From assembly GCA_963706595.1 (NCBI GenBank), contig OY970166.1, forward strand, positions 2,432,001 through 2,496,000: a stretch of DNA of 64,000 bases. Direction: 5' to 3'. Below the pieces are notes generated by a model. That model did not search any database. It was not told the DNA's origin and saw only the letters and a list, made by a program, of their open reading frames with translations. The position numbers and the translations under genes were made by a program. Shown here in pieces: positions 19,366 through 35,198 of this stretch. The stretch's first letter is position 1, and every line of letters starts with the position of its first letter. This DNA comes from an uncultured cyanobacterium. GTDB taxonomy: Bacteria > Cyanobacteriota > Cyanobacteriia > Cyanobacteriales > Nostocaceae.

Positions 19366-19749
19366 CTAACCACCATATAATTCTATTAACTCTAACTTTA
19401 CGGTATTTTTACCATAATTAGCAACTAAAATAAATAACTTCAACCATTGAGAACCTAATAAAATTTCCTGTATTTCATCTCCAGCGAATACAGAAACTTC
19501 AAACTCTTGACCATCTAGGATTACCCTACCGCTATAAACATCAAATTCAGTTTCACCTTGAGCAGTTCTTAATTTATCTTGACCTAAAAAAGTCCAATCT
19601 AGACTTTCTATATCCTGTTTATTCATTGCTAAAAATTCAGTAAATCCTGTATCTAACATTGTTTCTACAGGAAAACTGAAATTCTCTCCACCAATTAAAT
19701 CAACTTCAAAATAAATTTGTCCATTTTCTCCAAATCTTCCCTCAATCAT
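19366..19749 (-). CDS. Clan AA (retropepsin-like) aspartic protease
   Basis: MLDTGFT catalytic motif, TAQG flap and ILLG motif. Confidence 0.8.
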   Translation of the reverse strand: MIEGRFGENGQIYFEVDLIGGENFSFPVETMLDTGFTEFLAMNKQDIESLDWTFLGQDKLRTAQGETEFDVYSGRVILDGQEFEVSVFAGDEIQEILLGSQWLKLFILVANYGKNTVKLELIELYGG

Positions 19750-20063
19750 ATTCTGCCACTAACTCCCGTTTCATTAATGCCAAAAATATGATGAATCACA
19801 TTAGGGTACTTTTCTCTCGCCATTTTACTTGCTACTTCTTTATCCTCATCAATGAAATAATCACCGCTATCAGGCTCAATGGCAATGTACCAACCATAGT
19901 ATTTATCTAGTATTTCTGGTTTTAAACGCTCAAAAATTACCCAGCAACGTTCATAAAATGCCTGTCTTCTCGCTCTATCTTGAGCTTTTTGTGCTTCTGT
20001 CCATTGAATTTCAGGAAATACTCTCCCACGTCTGACAATTCTCTCTGATGGACTTTGCGTCAT
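19746..20063 (-). CDS. Small protein coupled to the aspartic protease (DUF5678-like)
   Basis: YYGWYIAIEPDSGDYFID; ATGA overlap with the protease; paralogue at 26063. Confidence 0.7.
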   Translation of the reverse strand: MTQSPSERIVRRGRVFPEIQWTEAQKAQDRARRQAFYERCWVIFERLKPEILDKYYGWYIAIEPDSGDYFIDEDKEVASKMAREKYPNVIHHIFGINETGVSGRI

Positions 20064-25982: not shown

Positions 25983-26062
25983 TTCTATTCGTAAGTTAAT
26001 AAATAAAGATGTTATTGGCGTACAATTGAGTTAATGCAGTCTTGACAGTGAGGGTTAATAAT

Positions 26063-26380
26063 GTGACGCAATCAACGCCGAAACGACCCCTACGGCGAGG
26101 AAGAATTTTTCCTGAACTGACTTCAACACCAGAGGAACGGGCTAAACGTAAAGCTGAAGATGAAGTATTTTATCTCCGTTGTCGCGCTATATTTGAACGA
26201 GTTCGTCCCGATTTGATTTCAGAACACTATGGCTGGTATATTGCTGTAGAGCCGGATAGTGGTGATTATTTCGTTGATGAAGATAAAGAACTCGCTAGTC
26301 AGAAAGCGCATGAAAAGCACCCAAATGCTGTACATTGTATGTTCTGCCTGAATGAGACTGGAGCTACTGGCAGAATATGA
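26063..26380 (+). CDS. Small protein coupled to the aspartic protease (DUF5678-like), second copy
   Basis: RRGRIFPE...HYGWYIAVEPDSGDYF...NETGATGRI; paralogue of 19746..20063; probable GTG start. Confidence 0.7.
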   Translation: MTQSTPKRPLRRGRIFPELTSTPEERAKRKAEDEVFYLRCRAIFERVRPDLISEHYGWYIAVEPDSGDYFVDEDKELASQKAHEKHPNAVHCMFCLNETGATGRI

Positions 26381-26739
26381 TTCAGGGTATATTTGGGAAT
26401 GAGGGGCAGCTATTTTTTGAAATTGAATTTATTAATAATGATGGATTAAATTTGCCTGTGGATGCCCTTTTAGATACGGGTTTCACAGGTTTTATGGCAA
26501 TTAATGAACAAGATTTAGATGGTCTTGATTGGCTATTTGTACGCCAAGAAATTCTGCGAACTGCACAAGGAGAAACAAATTTTAATATATATTTAGGGAA
26601 GGTTTTATTGGATGGACAGCAGTATGAGATTCCTGTTTGTGCGGGGGATGAAATAACAGAGGTTTTATTAGGTTCAGAGTGGTTGAAAATTTTGCCGTTG
26701 GTTGTGAATTTTCAGGCTGATATTTTGACTTTGGGTTAA
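26377..26739 (+). CDS. Clan AA (retropepsin-like) aspartic protease, second copy
   Basis: LLDTGFT, TAQG and VLLG; ATGA overlap with the upstream gene. Confidence 0.8.
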   Translation: MIQGIFGNEGQLFFEIEFINNDGLNLPVDALLDTGFTGFMAINEQDLDGLDWLFVRQEILRTAQGETNFNIYLGKVLLDGQQYEIPVCAGDEITEVLLGSEWLKILPLVVNFQADILTLG

Positions 26740-26789: not shown

Positions 26790-28262
26790 TTATTTGGCGG
26801 TGGTTGGTAAGTCGCGGAGAAAGTAAAAGCGATCGCTCTTCCAATCTTTTCCTTTTTCTCTTCCTAAATAGCCTGTGAGGGGTGAGGAAAGTTCTATTAA
26901 GATTTCGTGCATTTCCTCTTTTTTTAGGAGTTGTGGCGGATTTGAGCCAAAATATACGCCATGTAAGGTTTCGACTCCTGTTGATTTTTCCCCTGAGTTT
27001 TGCAGATAATTTTTTACTAGCTGGATTATGTGCGATCGCAATTTAATATGGTTTTCTATTTTATCTATATATTCATCAATTTTATCGTCTATTTGTCCAG
27101 GTTCTAAATATTTCTGCAATTCCAACAAATTGATTGCACCTGGATATTTTGCTTTCAGTTCAACCAGTTTTTGTAAAGTCATAGCATTAATAATACTTAC
27201 TTTCCATTCTTGTGCTGCTTTTTCTGTGTCTCTAGATGGCTTACCGGGACCAATTACTAATTTCGCTGAGTTGAAAAATTGCTCAGAACCTAAGTGCATT
27301 CCCCCAAGTTTAATTAATTCTTCCACAGTACCGCTAGGAATGAGCCTACCTGCTTTACATTCGCAAACTAGGGGATAAGGTTGTGAACAATATAAATCTA
27401 AGCCTCCCGCACCACCTTGATAAGCCTCTTCAATTTTGAATCCTAAAAAATCAAGGCTTTGACGGGCGATAATTTCAAAGTCTGTCCCAGCGTGATAATT
27501 ACTTTTTTTCTCTTCTAGTTCTATACTGCGATCGCCTAAAGATACAATTGTTTTTATCCAAGCTAAATCTGCATTAATAGACTGAGTTAAACTGTCACTA
27601 CTCCAACCCAAAAAGATTTTGATGTCATTATCTAATTGCTGCACGGCTGGGTTTGTGCTGGCTATTTGTGATAATGCACTTTGTAATTCTTCGAGTTCTG
27701 GGTGTTTGGGTGGTTCTAGGTTTTGTAATTGGCGTTGGCGTTGGGCGAAGATGCGATCGCTTAACACTGGTTTTGCTTCTGAAGCAGTAATATTAGATAA
27801 ACTAACAAATTTACCTAATTTTTCTTTAATGTCAGCATTAACAGAAATTTCTTTAAATTCAGGTAAATGATAAACTCGCAAGTAAGCCAGAAAAATATAC
27901 GGTTTTTTCTGTAATATTGCTTCAAATGCTTCTGGTGTCCAGATTGTTAATTGAGATAAAACGTCTAAAGGTTTAGTTTTATCTAGCATTTGGCAACGTT
28001 CACATCTCGCCCAAGCTTTAATTGAAACTATCGTAGAATCAATTTGTTGAATACCACTTTGAGCAATTGGTGAAAAACTAGGGCGGTAGTATTGCTCAAT
28101 TGAAAGTGGAATGCTTGAAGTATGAACAGGATAAAGAGCGAATTTATCCCCTGTATTCAACAATTTTTTGGGCATAGCTGTAATAATTCGCCCTTCTATT
28201 AAAGCTTCAACATCAGCATAAGGCAAGCATAGGGCTTTATAAATTAAAACTGATTTACTCAT
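26790..28262 (-). CDS. DUF1802-like N-terminal domain fused to a Mrr-like PD-(D/E)XK nuclease and a C-terminal wH-like domain
   Basis: VEALIEGR...FALYP...LAYLRVY at the N-terminus; GTDFE...LDFLGF...GGAGGLDLYC...VCECKAG nuclease motif. Confidence 0.72.
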   Translation of the reverse strand: MSKSVLIYKALCLPYADVEALIEGRIITAMPKKLLNTGDKFALYPVHTSSIPLSIEQYYRPSFSPIAQSGIQQIDSTIVSIKAWARCERCQMLDKTKPLDVLSQLTIWTPEAFEAILQKKPYIFLAYLRVYHLPEFKEISVNADIKEKLGKFVSLSNITASEAKPVLSDRIFAQRQRQLQNLEPPKHPELEELQSALSQIASTNPAVQQLDNDIKIFLGWSSDSLTQSINADLAWIKTIVSLGDRSIELEEKKSNYHAGTDFEIIARQSLDFLGFKIEEAYQGGAGGLDLYCSQPYPLVCECKAGRLIPSGTVEELIKLGGMHLGSEQFFNSAKLVIGPGKPSRDTEKAAQEWKVSIINAMTLQKLVELKAKYPGAINLLELQKYLEPGQIDDKIDEYIDKIENHIKLRSHIIQLVKNYLQNSGEKSTGVETLHGVYFGSNPPQLLKKEEMHEILIELSSPLTGYLGREKGKDWKSDRFYFLRDLPTTAK

Positions 28263-28264
28263 GA

Positions 28265-30229
28265 TTAATTAAACAAATCACTCAACTCGTCTGAGTCGTC
28301 TGTTTCACTAAGAGTTTCATTAAATAATTCATCTAAAACATCGCTATCATCATCAAGTTCAGGCATATTACCGGATGGATCACTTAAAATTTCTCGAAGT
28401 AAAAGATTATCAATCGTAATCTTATTTTTAGAAATAAAATCAAAAATTTGCTCCTCTGTTAATTGATAATTTGACCGCTTTTGAAAAATAGATGAAATTG
28501 CCACAAGTGGGCGAATTTGTTCTTCTATCAAATCTACGTGTTCTCCACCTTTTTCTGATATGAGTTCGTTCAGCCATTTAGAGGCTTCTGAATTTTTCTT
28601 CATTTGTTCTATCTTCGATTGCGAACGAACTAAACAACCACGAGTTAGATTAAATGTTTCATAATCAACTAAACGTTTTAATGCAGCTATTAATGTAAAT
28701 GGAGAATTTTGTATTACAGAAACACCAATCTTTACTTCTTTGCCATTCTCACTACCGAGAATTTTGAAATTAATAAAAACTTTATCCTGTGATTTAGGAC
28801 TATTCTGTGATTTAGGTTGAATATCGTTTGTAACTTCTTCAATCAATACTTCTTCTAATGTCTGCCCTTTTAAAGTTATAAAACCAAAGTATAGAGCTTC
28901 AGCAATTAGGTTGCTATCCTCTAAATACTCGTCACTATCAAATTCACTTTCCCTATTAAAGGCTAACTCAAACCTCTCAAATGGGTCAGATGGCAGTGGA
29001 TCTTGATCAATTTTAAAGTTATCTGCACACCATCGCAAAGCTTCCCTTACACTTGGTTTACTTACTTTTCCGTATTCTCGCAGTTTACTTTCTTCAAATG
29101 GGTAGAGTGCATGAGGAGGAATTAATATTTTTGACTTATAATACTCTTGCAGCCAAATAGTAACTAACTCAACCATAGAATCACCACTAACGTATTTTAA
29201 CTCTACTGGTTTTCGCTGTGTAAATTTTGAAATCCTATCAGGCGTACCACCTGGCAAAGAATTTACCTTGTCTCTCCATGTTTCAGGAAGCATTACTGTG
29301 AGAATTACAACACCTTGACTAAGTTCAAAATTTTCGAGCGTATCATGCATAATTTTCACTAAATTAGCTATTACGCTTTCGGTCGGCAACCCATCCTCTG
29401 TAGAATTATTTTTAACGTCTATTTCATCAAAACAAATTAGGACTGGGTTATAGTAACTGACCAAATTTATAATTTGCTGAATAGCTTTGAGAGCTTCAGC
29501 TTCTCTATCTTGATTAGTTTTACTAGGATTAGGTAATCCCAACTCATCAGCATTCAACTGAGCTAATTCTTCACCAGATAACCATTTAATTGCGAAGGGT
29601 GCTTGAGTTTCTGAAAGTGTCCATAAAATAGCCCGTAAGATATAAGGATCTGCATTGGGTTTATTTTTAAGAACTTGTGCTTGCAGAACATTCATTAAAT
29701 TTCTATTTTTTGCCAAGCTCCTTCTATATGCTTGGTCAAATTTTTTAACTAATTCTGCTGGCTTGGAAAAATTATCAGGTTTAACTTCGTTTACCATAGC
29801 TGTGGCTACTTCCTGCCACTGCATTACCCCTTGGCTACCAGTTTGACTCAGGCTATCTGCTAAGGTTTGCTGAAATTGGTACTTAACTAGATTTAAATCT
29901 GTATAGTTATTACCACCTGAATAAACGAATAAAGCACCTCCTTCTTTTTCCAGTTGATGACGAATGCGACTGAGAAGATGAGTTTTACCAACTCCTTGTT
30001 GTGCAGTTATGCTAATTGAAGTAATTTTATCTTGACTAAATTGACTTGTTCGCACAAATTCAATTGCCTCAAAAACTTTATTAGAAGCATGAGCATTTAA
30101 GGTAGATACATCTGGTAACTTTTTACCCCAAATATCCTGCTCTTTCGCAATGCCAGCATTGGTAAATGGATTGTGACTTTGAATAGCGGTGTTTACGGTT
30201 TCTATGGGGGAAGGAGGAGGATTTGTCAT
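28265..30229 (-). CDS. P-loop (AAA+-like) ATPase, 654 aa, with acidic C-terminal tail
   Basis: Walker A AQQGVGKT and Walker B VLICFDEID; LYPF and VREAL sensor-like segments. Confidence 0.8.
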   Translation of the reverse strand: MTNPPPSPIETVNTAIQSHNPFTNAGIAKEQDIWGKKLPDVSTLNAHASNKVFEAIEFVRTSQFSQDKITSISITAQQGVGKTHLLSRIRHQLEKEGGALFVYSGGNNYTDLNLVKYQFQQTLADSLSQTGSQGVMQWQEVATAMVNEVKPDNFSKPAELVKKFDQAYRRSLAKNRNLMNVLQAQVLKNKPNADPYILRAILWTLSETQAPFAIKWLSGEELAQLNADELGLPNPSKTNQDREAEALKAIQQIINLVSYYNPVLICFDEIDVKNNSTEDGLPTESVIANLVKIMHDTLENFELSQGVVILTVMLPETWRDKVNSLPGGTPDRISKFTQRKPVELKYVSGDSMVELVTIWLQEYYKSKILIPPHALYPFEESKLREYGKVSKPSVREALRWCADNFKIDQDPLPSDPFERFELAFNRESEFDSDEYLEDSNLIAEALYFGFITLKGQTLEEVLIEEVTNDIQPKSQNSPKSQDKVFINFKILGSENGKEVKIGVSVIQNSPFTLIAALKRLVDYETFNLTRGCLVRSQSKIEQMKKNSEASKWLNELISEKGGEHVDLIEEQIRPLVAISSIFQKRSNYQLTEEQIFDFISKNKITIDNLLLREILSDPSGNMPELDDDSDVLDELFNETLSETDDSDELSDLFN

Positions 30230-30279
30230 GGTGATTCGATGTGATGCGAGGAACTACAAGATGTGCAGGCAAAATTTGA

Positions 30280-30948
30280 TTAACTCAAGCGTTTGGCGTA
30301 AGAACGTAGTTGTGTGCCTGCTATAGAAATTGAATCTTCTCGTTTATCAGCAGTAAAGTCTGGTATTTCTCCAGTTATCAGCTGCAAAATGTCATCAGCT
30401 TGCATTTCTATCAGCCATTTGTTGAATTTTTCACGGCTAACGCGATCGCCTATTTCTCGCCTAATTCTGTAAATTGGCACTAAATTATCTAGACTGTGAT
30501 TTTGGTTCAGCTTGTCGTAGACTTCCAACGCGACAGACTTAAACTCGTCGTAAGAAGCAATATTTGCACTTTTCACTGCATTCACTGGTGCAGATGTACC
30601 AACACTTACATCTATCTGACTAATCCACCGCACCAACGCATTCGCCGCCCAAGTACCAACAATAGTCCCTTCAAACTTAAAATCACCACTTCTCAAACTC
30701 TCACTTAGAACCTCCAAACCCTTGGGAGAGTTAAGAGAGTATCCAGTTTTGGAAATAGCGATCGCGCCTTCCGCCTGTAATTCCGCGAATATGTCCTTAA
30801 AATCTGCTACCTTCTTACCCTTAGATATAATGCGCTTCGTTAGTTGACCCTTCTTAACTTCCTGCTTTGTTGCTCCCAAATCCCACAAAGCCAGCAGCAG
30901 ACGTGTTTTAGCTTGGGTAGCCTGTAAAAGATTTTGTCCCGCACCCAT
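30280..30948 (-). CDS. Hypothetical protein, probably two winged-helix-like domains
   Basis: RLLLALWDLG...ELQAEGAI and LVPIYRIRREIG.VSREKFNKWLIEMQ segments joined by a low-complexity linker; first gene of the operon. Confidence 0.6.
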   Translation of the reverse strand: MGAGQNLLQATQAKTRLLLALWDLGATKQEVKKGQLTKRIISKGKKVADFKDIFAELQAEGAIAISKTGYSLNSPKGLEVLSESLRSGDFKFEGTIVGTWAANALVRWISQIDVSVGTSAPVNAVKSANIASYDEFKSVALEVYDKLNQNHSLDNLVPIYRIRREIGDRVSREKFNKWLIEMQADDILQLITGEIPDFTADKREDSISIAGTQLRSYAKRLS

Positions 30949-31577
30949 ACCATGTTTCCTATTTGACTAATAATTATTATCATAATGTGATTTGATGACT
31001 TTAGGTACAAAAATCAGATTATTTGCTAGATATTTCCCATCAATAGCTAAGTGTATTCATAATAAAACTGAAATATATCAAAAACTTAATTTAGGTAAAC
31101 TGGGGATAAATCTCAAAAAATAATTCCACCTTAGCACTGTCTGTGGCACAGTTCACATTGCTGCTCTAATACATTCTGCACTCGGATACTTCCGATACTA
31201 CCCCCCCTGCTCATACTTAATTTCTAAGGTAAACCAAAGCGATCGCCAATAATCTGACTTTGCGCTATTTTTTGATACTCAGCATTGCATCCACATCACT
31301 GTCACTGTATGTGGGTTGTAAATATTACTTTTATTTGTTTACGTATTATCAATGGAGTATTATTTATATCTACCTCAACTATTTTTTATACATTTCCTAT
31401 TGACTTTAATTCTTAAAAGCTCTACATTCTCTTATTGGAATAATTGATAATAATTGACGATATTTTTGCAAAGAGTTCTTAATAAAAATGTTAAATCTGC
31501 TCTTACAAGAGTTATGATTATTATTCTTAACTCTTAACTTTTATTCTGTAAATTGATCAAATTGACAGAGGCAAAGG

Positions 31578-32300
31578 ATGAGTGATTACGTAATTGAATG
31601 TCACAACTTAGAGACGGCTTATGTTGGCTCTTTGAATCGTCCGATCCTCAACAATATTAACTGTCAAATTAAGCAAGGTGAATTTGTTGTACTGTAGGAC
31701 TCAATGGTGCTGGTAAATCTACATTATTGCGATCGCTTGTAGGGTTAGTACCATTAGTCAGGGAGAAGTTGGCATCAACGGCGTGGCATAAATAACCGCA
31801 CACTTCCCCAAATCCGCCGTGATATCGGAATGTTGTTTCAAGGCGGTGGGTTAATTCCTCAGTTATCAGCAATTAAAAATGTATTATGCGGTAGGCTTGG
31901 CACAAGAACAACTTGGCAAACACTATTCGGCTTTCCTAAACGCGATGCCTCCTAGCATTAGAATTACTGGAAGAGTTGGGTTTAAGAGACTTAGCCTATC
32001 AAAAGACTAGCAAACTTAGTGGTGGTCAGCAACAAAGAGTAGCGATCGCTCGTGCTTTAATTCAATCACCAAAAGTACTCTAGCAGACGAACCCACCACC
32101 GGGTAGATGTTATCGCTACCCAACAAGTAATGGAAGCTTTAGCCAAATTACACACCGAACAAGGTATGACCATTGTCACAGTCTTACACGACTTAGCAAT
32201 AGCCGCCTAATATGCCCAACGCGCGATGTTCTTGATCCGGGTGCATCGTTTACGAGGTCTTGCGATAACTTGCAAGCCCAGTTTGTGGTCAATAGTCAAA
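31578..32300 (+). pseudogene. phnC: Phosphonate ABC transporter ATPase pseudogene
   Basis: MSDYVIECHNL..., [24 protein letters not shown] and ADEP are spread across frames; several single-base deletions and a premature TAA near 32208. Confidence 0.8.
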
Positions 32301-32344
32301 GCCCACACTAATTAAATCAATTTATTTGCACCGACCTACTGATA

Positions 32345-33138
32345 ATGAGTTATCTACCAATTTCTAAATTTCTCCGCCGTTACTCTTGGGTAAGTCCCTT
32401 AGTCATTTTATTAATTGTTATTATAATTTACGGGTGGGCTTTGCAAGGACTTCAGCTTAATTTTGAACTGCTGACATCTAGCGCCCCCTTCATTGCTGAT
32501 TTTATTTCCCGCTTATTTCCTCCCGATTTTAGAGTTATTGATATTGCCATCAAAGCACTGATTGAAACTGTACAGATGTCTCTTTGGGGAACAACCATTG
32601 GGGCGATTATCTCTGTACCAATAGCAGTTGCTAGCGCTCGTAATGTTGCTCCTACTTGGCTGCAATGGCTGGCTAATTTGCTGCAAAATGCTGTGCGTTC
32701 TGTCCCCTCAATTATTTTAGGGCTAATTTTCGTTGCCGCCACAGGTTTAGGCGCACCAGCAGGCACTCTCGCTTTAAGTATATATACTATCGGCTATCTA
32801 GCCAAGTTTTATCAACAAGCCATTGAAGCGTTGAGCCTCGCTCTTTAGAATCTCTAGAAGTTATCGGCGCATCTCGACTGCAAATTGCTCAGTATGGAAT
32901 TTTACCGCAAGTGCTACCCCTGAGTTTAGGTTATACCTTATGGATGTTTGAGTACAATATTCGTGCTGCTTCTGTGTTGGGTGTAGTAGGTGCAGGAGGT
33001 ATTGGTTTTCAGTTAAAAAGTTATATTGATGGGTTTGAATATAACAAAGCTACAACCATGATGTTAGTACTTTTAGTAGTAGTGACAGTGATAGATGGTT
33101 TCAGCAGCAAGTTGCGTCGCCGCCTGGAGTCAATATAA
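32345..33138 (+). pseudogene. phnE: Phosphonate ABC transporter permease, frameshifted near 32830
   Basis: ETVQMSLWGT...GLGAPAG and FEYNIRAASVLGVVGAGGIG; one added base restores AVEPRSLESL and joins the two ORFs. Confidence 0.85.
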
Positions 33139-33175: not shown

Positions 33176-33290
33176 AATTACGAATTACGTTAGCGTAGCT
33201 CTCCCGTTCGCGTAGCGTTCCGCAGGAAAGGGAGCATTACGAATTACGAATTACGTTAGCGTAGCTCCTCGGAAAGAGGCATTACGAATT
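33176..33290. repeat. AATTACG heptamer repeat carrying nested small dispersed repeats
   Basis: TTACGAA units interrupted by TTAGCGTAGCTC...GCATTACG inserts, the first with a further internal insert; related inverted copy at about 34250-34305. Confidence 0.7.
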
Positions 33291-34246
33291 ACTTTAAAAT
33301 TTCCTGCGCCCGATTAATATTATTCCGCACAGATTGCGCCGAAATCTGCAAAGCTTCTCTTTCCCCATCGGTGAGATACAATTCCAAAATCTTCTCAACT
33401 CCACCGCAACCCAAACGACAGGGAACACCAATCACAATATCATCTAAACCATATTCACCTTGTAAATAAGTCGCCACAGGTAACAACCGCGACTGATTCA
33501 ACAAAATAGATTCCACCATCACACTCGCAGCAGAAGCAGGGGCAAAAAATGCCCCACCAGTCCGCATCAATTCCACAATTTCCGCGCCCCCATTGCGGGT
33601 TCTCTCTACCAAACGGGCAATTGTGGCTGTATCGAATAATTCTGTAATGGGAATGCCGTTAACCGTCGCATAACGCGACAAGGGAACCATTAAATCACCG
33701 TGGCTACCCAATACCATCGCCTTGACATCAGCCGGTAATACCCCTAATTCTAAAGCAATGAAAGTTTCAAATCTAGCTGAGTCTAACACCCCAGCCATAC
33801 CCATAACTGCGGTGACGTGGTAAACCTGTAGCTTCCCAAGCCAAATATGTCATCACATCTAAGGGATTGGTGACTACTATAAAAATAGCATTGGGAGAAT
33901 AGGCGATCGCACTCTTAGCAGCTTCCACCACAATTTTGGCATTAATTTTCAGCAAATCATCCCGACTCATCCCAGGTTTGCGAGGAATACCGGCAGTAAT
34001 TACCACAATTTCGGAATCAGCCGTATCAGCATAATTAGTTGTCCCGATAATCTGCCGATGATGTAACTCAATACCCCTAGCTTCCATCAAATCTAATGCT
34101 AAACCTTGAGGCATTCCCTCAACAATATCCAGCAACACCACATCTGCAAAATTTTTCTCAGCAATGCGTTGGGCTAAAGTGCTACCAACCTTACCAGCAC
34201 CAACGATGGTGACACGAGGTGAACGGCATAGAATAGGAGAAATCAT
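33289..34246 (-). pseudogene. mdh: Malate dehydrogenase (LDH-like) split by a 1-nt insertion near 33808 (pseudogene or assembly error)
   Basis: GAGKVG, TAGIPRKPGMSRDDL and TNPLD in the first ORF; GMAGVLDSARF and GSHGD in the second. Confidence 0.88.
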
Positions 34247-34899: not shown

Positions 34900-35198
34900 A
34901 GTATCTAGTATTATTCAAGTAATCTCTATTTTTGATTAACTTAGAACTTACGCACTTTACAAATTAATCAGGGTATGATTTCAATAAAATACGTCGTTTC
35001 AGACTTTTATCCCCGATTATTTTGATTGTAAATAGACCAGCATTGTAGGGGTTTAGCAATGCTAAACCCCTACGAAAGATATGGTTTTGATAATACATAT
35101 TTAATGTTAATTGTCAATGCTTAACTTCTATAATTTTTTCTGGTCGATATTCTAGAGTAATGTATCACTGAACTGTAATCGGTATAAAATAAAATATT

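Follow-up and report, generated by a model that had tools for sequence, protein, structure and literature searches.

A three-gene operon of filamentous cyanobacteria combining an Orc/Cdc6-like ATPase with an ASCH-fused nuclease: a candidate defence system

How does a bacterium that carries an intact nuclease spare its own DNA without a methylase dedicated to that nuclease, and why is the catalytic domain swapped between lineages and not the domain that supposedly reads the target? These questions are raised by a three-gene operon, here called A-B-C, which is located at positions 26790–30948 of a 64,000-nucleotide (nt) stretch of DNA (the window) from an uncultured cyanobacterium of the Nostocaceae (GenBank assembly GCA_963706595.1, contig OY970166.1, positions 2,432,001 to 2,496,000). 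Defence is the most likely role of the operon. The explanation we favour, with a probability of roughly 0.65, is that A-B-C would function as an ATP-gated nuclease against invading phage or plasmid DNA, without a cognate methyltransferase and with a swappable catalytic cassette. The genes are, with lengths in amino acids (aa):

30280–30948, minus strand: gene A, 222 aa
28265–30229, minus strand: gene B, 654 aa; AAA+ ATPase of the Orc/Cdc6 type (initiator clade), probable inactive restriction endonuclease (REase)-like domain, acidic disordered tail
26790–28262, minus strand: gene C, 490 aa; degenerate ASCH (DUF1802) domain, helical linker, PD-(D/E)XK nuclease, winged helix (wH)

As described in a first-pass annotation of the window, these are three intact, co-directional open reading frames (ORFs) with intergenic gaps of 50 and 2 nt. 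They are AT-rich (GC content 0.35–0.43 vs. 0.41 for the genome) and single-copy in the genome according to tblastn, and the closest named homologue of C, from Nodularia spumigena, is 93% identical. The same annotation had recognised no named system in them, and the profile models of PADLOC-DB 2.0.0 indeed matched A, B and C with zero families at E values up to 1. An NCBIfam search gave no assignment, B scoring below the Sll1717 cut-off, and sequence searches of the PDB with the operon proteins were uninformative. Promoter and terminator scans at the operon yielded matches at chance level only.

In C, the following domains are found:

27723–28247, minus strand: ASCH/PUA-fold domain, aa 6–180, from fold search and alignment
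27063–27575, minus strand: nuclease domain, aa 230–400, with E263, D289, E301 and K303; exchangeable cassette
26793–27056, minus strand: C-terminal winged helix, aa 403–490, closest to the wH of Orc/Cdc6

Pfam assigns aa 10–178 of C to DUF1802 (E 3.6e-35). In the structure model of C (mean predicted local distance difference test, pLDDT, 86.6), aa 6–164 match CXorf40A with Z 9.2 (root-mean-square deviation, rmsd, 3.2; 130 residues aligned) and ZmASCH with Z 8.4. These scores are middling, yet ASCH entries recur across the Foldseek list, and the suspicion that the N-terminal domain is PUA-like was thus borne out. For the nuclease (aa 229–396), the best folds are the catalytic domains of FokI (Z 13.8, rmsd 3.0, 149 aligned) and N.BspD6I (Z 13.6). 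Its PD-(D/E)XK site, noted earlier from the motif, is intact, and its four residues (E263, D289, E301, K303) do not vary among the 79 intact operons; the accompanying label "Mrr-type", however, was not supported, as Mrr_cat was matched below the cut-off only, in two fusion homologues. The winged helix superimposes on that of Cdc6 with Z 10.1 (rmsd 2.3, 84 aligned). A DpnI-type wH that reads N6-methyladenine was a candidate for this domain; DpnI was absent among the 50 fold matches listed for C.

Standalone DUF1802 proteins of ~190 aa are present in many cyanobacteria and also in Deinococcus radiodurans; with the Pfam model, none was found in the genome studied here (G000). Thirteen of them share motifs of the type KEW, RKGGI.E, PT.EHQ and GGC[KR]SW. 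All four motifs are missing from 12 fused ASCH domains, which share 22% identity with the standalone form and carry an invariant W84, C87 and F172 of their own. Furthermore, a set of 17 long proteins homologous to the nuclease-wH region of C includes 16 single chains in which an AAA+ domain, an inactive REase (iREase), an REase and a wH follow each other without ASCH; the remaining one is a kinase-like fusion. Such natural fusions (e.g., P0245 and P0276) suggest that ATPase and nuclease share one function and that ASCH is dispensable, with the proviso that the metagenome scans gave no DNA context for the fusion proteins (none in 79 loci) and a separate ASCH gene may adjoin them. The claim that the N-terminal domain reads modified or damaged DNA is weakened by the lost motifs and by these fusions. 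Several other B homologues end in a SeqA-C-like domain (below the cut-off, E 3e-5 to 1.5e-3), and these tails keep a possible role for methylation sensing open. As separate observations, the same nuclease-wH module is found in protein P0408 behind a kinase-like domain (MAD6/PglW-like, below the cut-off), which replaces the ATPase, and the standalone DUF1802 proteins (L149:74–652, L150:4250–4849, L151–L164) constitute a conserved ASCH family with enzyme-like motifs and varied neighbours.

The ATPase B contains the following elements:

29981–30004, minus strand: Walker A motif AQQGVGKT, aa 76–83, from the sequence
29423–29437, minus strand: Walker B motif ICFDE, aa 265–269, from the sequence
28370–28972, minus strand: C-terminal domain, aa 420–620, with an alpha-beta-beta-beta-alpha-beta order in the model

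Pfam gives weak P-loop matches only. A fold search with the structure model (pLDDT 91) showed that aa 14–411 match Cdc6/Orc proteins with Z 14.3–15.1 (for the best, Z 15.1, rmsd 3.5, 243 aligned), and TnsC (Z 14.1), BrxC (Z 13.3) and MuB are also among the matches within Z 13–15. The Walker motifs had been called intact, and K82, D268, R332 and R395 are invariant in all 79 intact operons; E269 is present in 73 and is replaced by Q in the six divergent operons L124, L126 and L128–L131, a natural Walker-B substitution suggesting slow or absent hydrolysis in these. In the C-terminal domain, (D/E)xK is missing, with KIGV[AS]V in its place. In the whole-model search, Foldseek matched it weakly to Nt.BspD6I (E 2.7e-3); the VIA rows do not extend over this domain, and hhalign comparisons of this domain with the nuclease of C and with the C-terminal half of a paralogue of B (see below) were not significant. 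It is probably an inactive REase fold, judging from the model; an inactive REase after the AAA+ core has been stated for related FtsK-coupled ATPases (PMC10853773). A complex prediction of B (aa 1–625) with C (aa 1–226) scored 0.09 and carries no weight either way.

Protein A gave no match in Pfam, NCBIfam, PADLOC or the PDB, and its matches in the Atlas are unnamed clusters only. From its sequence we infer two winged-helix-like halves (~aa 10–112 and 128–222). A profile match of its C-terminal half (probability 91%, E 1e-6) relates it to a multi-wH protein, longer than A, that is encoded in a paralogous, FtsK-type operon, and it is a putative DNA-binding loader or adaptor for B. Its N-terminal domain also occurs elsewhere: at L037:7725–8630 and L058:7705–8685, upstream of the operon, a copy is found behind a long Lys/Ala-rich, histone-H1-like region (ORFs of similar length are present in L180, L212 and L214; the sequence was read for L037 and L058 only), and in L040 the domain is fused to Mdh.

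Comparison of operons revealed that the nuclease domain consists of four main allele classes that are exchanged across families, independently of the flanking domains. Relative to three congeners whose mdh or pgi genes are 94–97% identical, the N-terminal half of A is 91–95% and the wH of C 83–91% identical, while the values are 45% for B and 45–65% for the nuclease. The nuclease of the window is 78–83% identical to those of L129–L131, the ATPases of which are only 26–30% identical to B. Across 79 operons, the C-terminal half of A, both domains of B and ASCH co-vary (rho 0.70–0.82), whereas rho is 0.12–0.18 for the nuclease vs. the other domains and 0.03 (n=39) for the nuclease vs. the host's pgi; these values are descriptive, as operon pairs are not independent. 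The classes comprise 29, 26, 9 and 9 operons, with six others, have within-class identities of 75–82%, and each spans several families. Their signal is limited to ~aa 241–400 of C; it exists inside this segment by construction, and its absence outside is the informative result. Regions in which the classes differ include the helix that precedes the catalytic E and the segment following ExK. Congener monophyly was rejected for the nuclease in the approximately unbiased (AU) test (p-AU 3e-7; LG+G4, 25 hand-picked rows, the class tree being a quick tree), while the trees of the N-terminal half of A and of the wH of C keep the five congeners together. In every domain comparison with the closest congener for which dS could be estimated, dN was lower than dS.

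The history of the locus could be reconstructed within the genus. A pgi ... ndhO-mutM block is common to all 11 congeners. Six contain the operon (in G001, split over two contigs) and five have deletion scars with differing ends: A1–86 and C471–490 remain in G002, C457–487 in G003, the last 44 bp of C in G004, C430–490 in G008, and C429–490 and A1–100 in G010. Thus, the operon is ancestral in this slot and was lost repeatedly. The vacated slot now contains PDC-S28 in G003 (E 2e-276; a PADLOC candidate rather than a proven system) and a retron-type reverse transcriptase gene (358 aa) with a Schlafen/AlbA_2-TPR gene in G004 (L141:4595–7267), possibly an unusual retron effector pairing. G002 and G008 (L139:6978–9145, L146:5419–7311) share the same pair of a helix-turn-helix (HTH) gene and a CFI-box-CTERM gene, without a defence match, and G010 contains phn with a partial duplication of mdh. 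Loss, slot replacement and nuclease exchange together constitute a defence-like pattern, and the operon's earlier designation as a defence candidate stands in this respect.

The operon had been placed in an accessory slot beside a decayed phn operon. Of this, the deletion of phnD is real, but A-B-C is the ancestral occupant and phn the insert; hence, the candidate view of a recently inserted accessory island was rejected. The insert, which occupies the slot only in G000 and G010, is outside the system:

31350–33138, plus strand: decayed phn insert, with phnD (~1.2 kb) deleted relative to G010

Next to it, mdh is present as two ORFs at 33289–34246, vs. a single ORF of 318–324 aa in the congeners. 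Unlike the phnD deletion, the frameshifts in phn and mdh could be assembly indels.

The genes also stay together in a wider sample. A GTDB scan gave 160 confirmed matches, of which the best 80, biased to close relatives, correspond to 78 loci; the order A-B-C is found in 69 of these, and the other nine stop at contig edges. Loci from metagenomes have the same layout. Of 301 genomes sampled evenly from the phylum, 67 gave a match with E ≤1e-20 and, counted among the matches listed, at least 50 contain this ATPase with E ≤1e-90; those of the weaker matches that were inspected belong mostly to a paralogous operon for a wH protein, an ATPase and an exonuclease-nuclease-FtsK protein. Within the host family, 24 of 35 genomes have the ATPase, as do 11 of 14 in family f3, but it was found in none of 165 genomes of eight other families, nor in f23 (0/13) and f30 (0/8). 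Among records bearing a name, homologues of the operon are restricted to cyanobacteria. In L043, L082, L212, L054 and L165, either two or three divergent operon copies follow each other in tandem or the C or B gene is doubled, as expected if strains stack alleles.

A survey of the neighbourhood covered 844 ORFs within 4 kb in 169 loci, 85 of which extend >3 kb to either side. Clustering gave 265 representatives of at least 130 aa, and 263 of these were scanned against PADLOC. No methyltransferase adjoins the operon, as had been noted for the window, and no conserved linked one was found in the relatives among these representatives; the DNA-methyltransferase matches are L228, a fragment in L184 and two mad2 matches that are weak and partial.

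The architecture had been put forward as a candidate uncharacterised system, but it is not undescribed. An unnamed operon for an Orc/Cdc6 ATPase, an ASCH-REase fusion and a DndG-like protein with a triple winged helix-turn-helix (wHTH) was predicted, in one sentence, to act against selfish elements (Rakesh, Aravind, Krishnan 2024; PMC10853773, section 22). A-B-C almost certainly belongs to this family: B is an Orc/Cdc6-family AAA+ protein, C an ASCH-fused REase and A a putative multi-wH protein, and HerA/FtsK is lacking in both. They differ in that A seems to consist of two wH halves instead of a triple wHTH, and in that the Orc/Cdc6-type wH is located on C, not on B. The main text of PMC10853773 does not mention cyanobacteria, ASCH degeneration, nuclease allele exchange, or loss and replacement. 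No experimental study of the operon was found in the literature searched, with most subscription journals outside its coverage.

Several known systems share components with A-B-C. The HerA/FtsK capture systems with an Orc/Cdc6-iREase protein (PMC10853773) have a homologous ATPase and multi-wH protein, but their third gene encodes an exonuclease-PD-(D/E)XK-FtsK protein instead of ASCH-REase-wH, and no HerA/FtsK domain is present in A, B or C. The paralogous operon mentioned above, found in the same genome (G000:C1 ~1,835,800–1,841,400; L117:3839–9359, minus strand), fits such a capture system by its sequence; it encodes a multi-wH protein, an Orc/Cdc6-like ATPase with a CFDQ Walker B motif and a 3'-5' exonuclease-nuclease-FtsK protein, and its wH gene appears to be truncated at the C terminus (245 vs. 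272–292 aa). In the comparisons with bacteriophage exclusion (BREX; BrxA/BrxC) and with Ssp phosphorothioation (SspB/SspC), drawn from the available parts of 10.1101/2025.10.09.681413 and PMC10853773, A-B-C differs by having no modification module at all: no PglX, PglZ or BrxL is present in the operon or among the 263 neighbour representatives of 169 loci, and no Ssp modification-gene match in the operon or its neighbours. Like the type IV enzymes of the PUA superfamily (VcaM4I, MspJI, YTH-McrBC), C has a PUA-fold domain fused to an intact nuclease and no cognate methylase, but here the presumed reader is a degenerate ASCH domain, C is paired with an Orc/Cdc6 ATPase and a wH protein, and fusions without ASCH exist. 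With TnsC of Tn7, which recruits an REase-fold nuclease (TnsA), and with MuB of Mu, B shares the initiator-clade AAA+ fold (Z 13–14), but A-B-C has no transposase and no element ends, and occupies a fixed chromosomal slot. MANTIS, as far as its available text goes, requires a methyltransferase and so differs from A-B-C (10.64898/2026.09.23.753747), and the operon is not described in the accessible part of 10.64898/2026.10.19.760177.

The favoured explanation draws on computed features: the domain anatomy with its intact sites, the tight linkage, the natural fusions, and a history in which the operon was lost repeatedly, gave way to other defence genes and exchanged its nuclease domain. The mechanism proposed here, by contrast, is modelled on folds, conservation and the analogy with Orc/Cdc6, TnsC and FokI. 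In this mechanism, A would bind DNA and load or target B. Bound to ATP, B would then form an oligomer on duplex DNA, like Orc/Cdc6, TnsC and MuB, and serve as a switch or scaffold more than as a motor. This oligomer would recruit and cluster C, after which the FokI-like domains could cut. Since cutting would require assembly on the triggering substrate, the host would not need a protective methylase. For the degenerate ASCH domain, a role as a reader of modified bases and a non-catalytic one, in nucleic-acid binding or docking, are about equally likely. Balancing selection may act on the nuclease cassette, the classes of which would differ in sequence preference or escape inhibitors encoded by invaders. 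A bolder and rather doubtful version derives A-B-C, as a modification-free system, from the BrxA/BrxC-SspB/SspC core. A TnsC-like ATPase switch would license the FokI-like nuclease; ASCH, once a ligand binder, would have become an adaptor that stands in for a covalent connection of ATPase and nuclease; and the catalytic domain would be a shuffled cassette for specificity or evasion, with a few ancient alleles under balancing selection across filamentous cyanobacteria; in its strongest form, solitary GATC/HIP1 methylation by the host would be the mark of self.

Several observations weigh against the favoured explanation. The co-variation of the C-terminal half of A, B and ASCH may stem from DNA linkage rather than physical contact. 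Rejection of congener monophyly for the ATPase (p 2e-4) comes with a long-branch warning, and for ASCH monophyly was not rejected (p-AU 0.18). Most neighbour genes among the 263 representatives are non-defence genes, and the operon occupies a fixed chromosomal slot amid housekeeping genes (pgi in 38 of 87 loci, mutM in 39 of 87). No replacement defence gene was detected in the other three genomes that lost it (G002, G008 and G010). A search of viral contigs gave nothing, and one of plasmids a single distant match of 22%. With its frequency in the host family, the operon is commoner than most defence systems.

Among the alternatives, restriction of the classical modification-dependent (type IV-like) kind, which would itself be a form of defence, is a possibility that we entertain tentatively. 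ASCH would flip and read a modified base and direct cutting, with help of the ATPase, which agrees with the ASCH/PUA fold, the retention of W84 and C87, the lack of a linked methylase, the SeqA-C-like domains fused to B homologues and the prediction that ASCH domains bind modified bases (PMC4738411, in the part available). However, the fused form has lost the motifs of the standalone proteins, 16 natural fusions do without ASCH, the exchanged classes belong to the nuclease and not to the supposed reader, and the role of ASCH in reading DNA is without experimental confirmation in the available part of PMC11037411 (the status of ASCH was also taken from parts of PMC12707154 and PMC7641849). Sequence-specific restriction with solitary host methylation, e.g., at GATC or the highly iterated palindrome HIP1, as the self mark, and with the nuclease classes as specificity variants, is unlikely. 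Among the differences between classes are indeed the two regions named above, next to the catalytic E and ExK, which contact DNA in type II enzymes; HIP1 is abundant in the genome (0.78 per kb), the named records are exclusively cyanobacterial, and the SeqA-like fusions would fit as well. Yet, the nearest folds are the catalytic domains of FokI and BspD6I, which are non-specific cutters, the SeqA-like matches are weak and found in a minority of homologues, no recognition site can be inferred, and quick swapping of classes demands that protection pre-exists for every new specificity.

Explanations beyond defence fare worse. A DNA repair or damage-response nuclease, in which damaged bases would be recognised by ASCH and the incision made by the ATPase-nuclease, seems improbable to us. 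It is suggested by the fixed slot near mutM in Nostocales, by Microcoleus loci with neighbours that, from their sequences, we take to be endonuclease-V-like and Nudix-like genes, and by the conservation of standalone DUF1802, also in D. radiodurans; but mutM is several genes away within an ordinary housekeeping block, the operon was lost in five of 11 congeners, the vacated slot was reused by defence genes, and swapping of nucleases between deep allele classes would be unusual for repair enzymes. Least probable of all is a selfish addiction module or a domesticated Tn7/Mu-like core, consisting of a TnsC-like ATPase and a TnsA-like REase-wH protein, without benefit for the host. TnsC and MuB among the top folds of B and the tandem copies in L043, L082 and L212 are in its favour, whereas no transposase gene was found in the window region and no terminal repeats bracket the operon, which in addition occupies the same slot across Nostocales and is readily deleted.

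If the favoured explanation is correct and A-B-C confers immunity, it would count as a very common form of defence in filamentous cyanobacteria and bear on resistance to cyanophages and on the difficulty of transforming these strains. The single-chain fusions found in nature and the four nuclease classes are ready-made reagents for its study. Its minimal core of a wH protein and an Orc/Cdc6-like ATPase could also clarify the roles of BrxA/BrxC and SspB/SspC.

Downstream of C lies a convergent pair of genes:

26042–26739, plus strand: gene for a 112-aa hypothetical protein and clan AA aspartic-protease-like gene

The pair (cluster c11, found in 25 of 87 loci, and cluster c12, in 24) is a frequent but not obligate neighbour and is still present in congeners that lost A-B-C. 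It is often duplicated near pgi in Nostocales, and a related copy is located at ~19.4–20.1 kb of the window (19746–20063). On the other side, a repeat of ~190 bp resembling a miniature inverted-repeat transposable element, many copies of which are present in the genome, is located at ~34941–35136.

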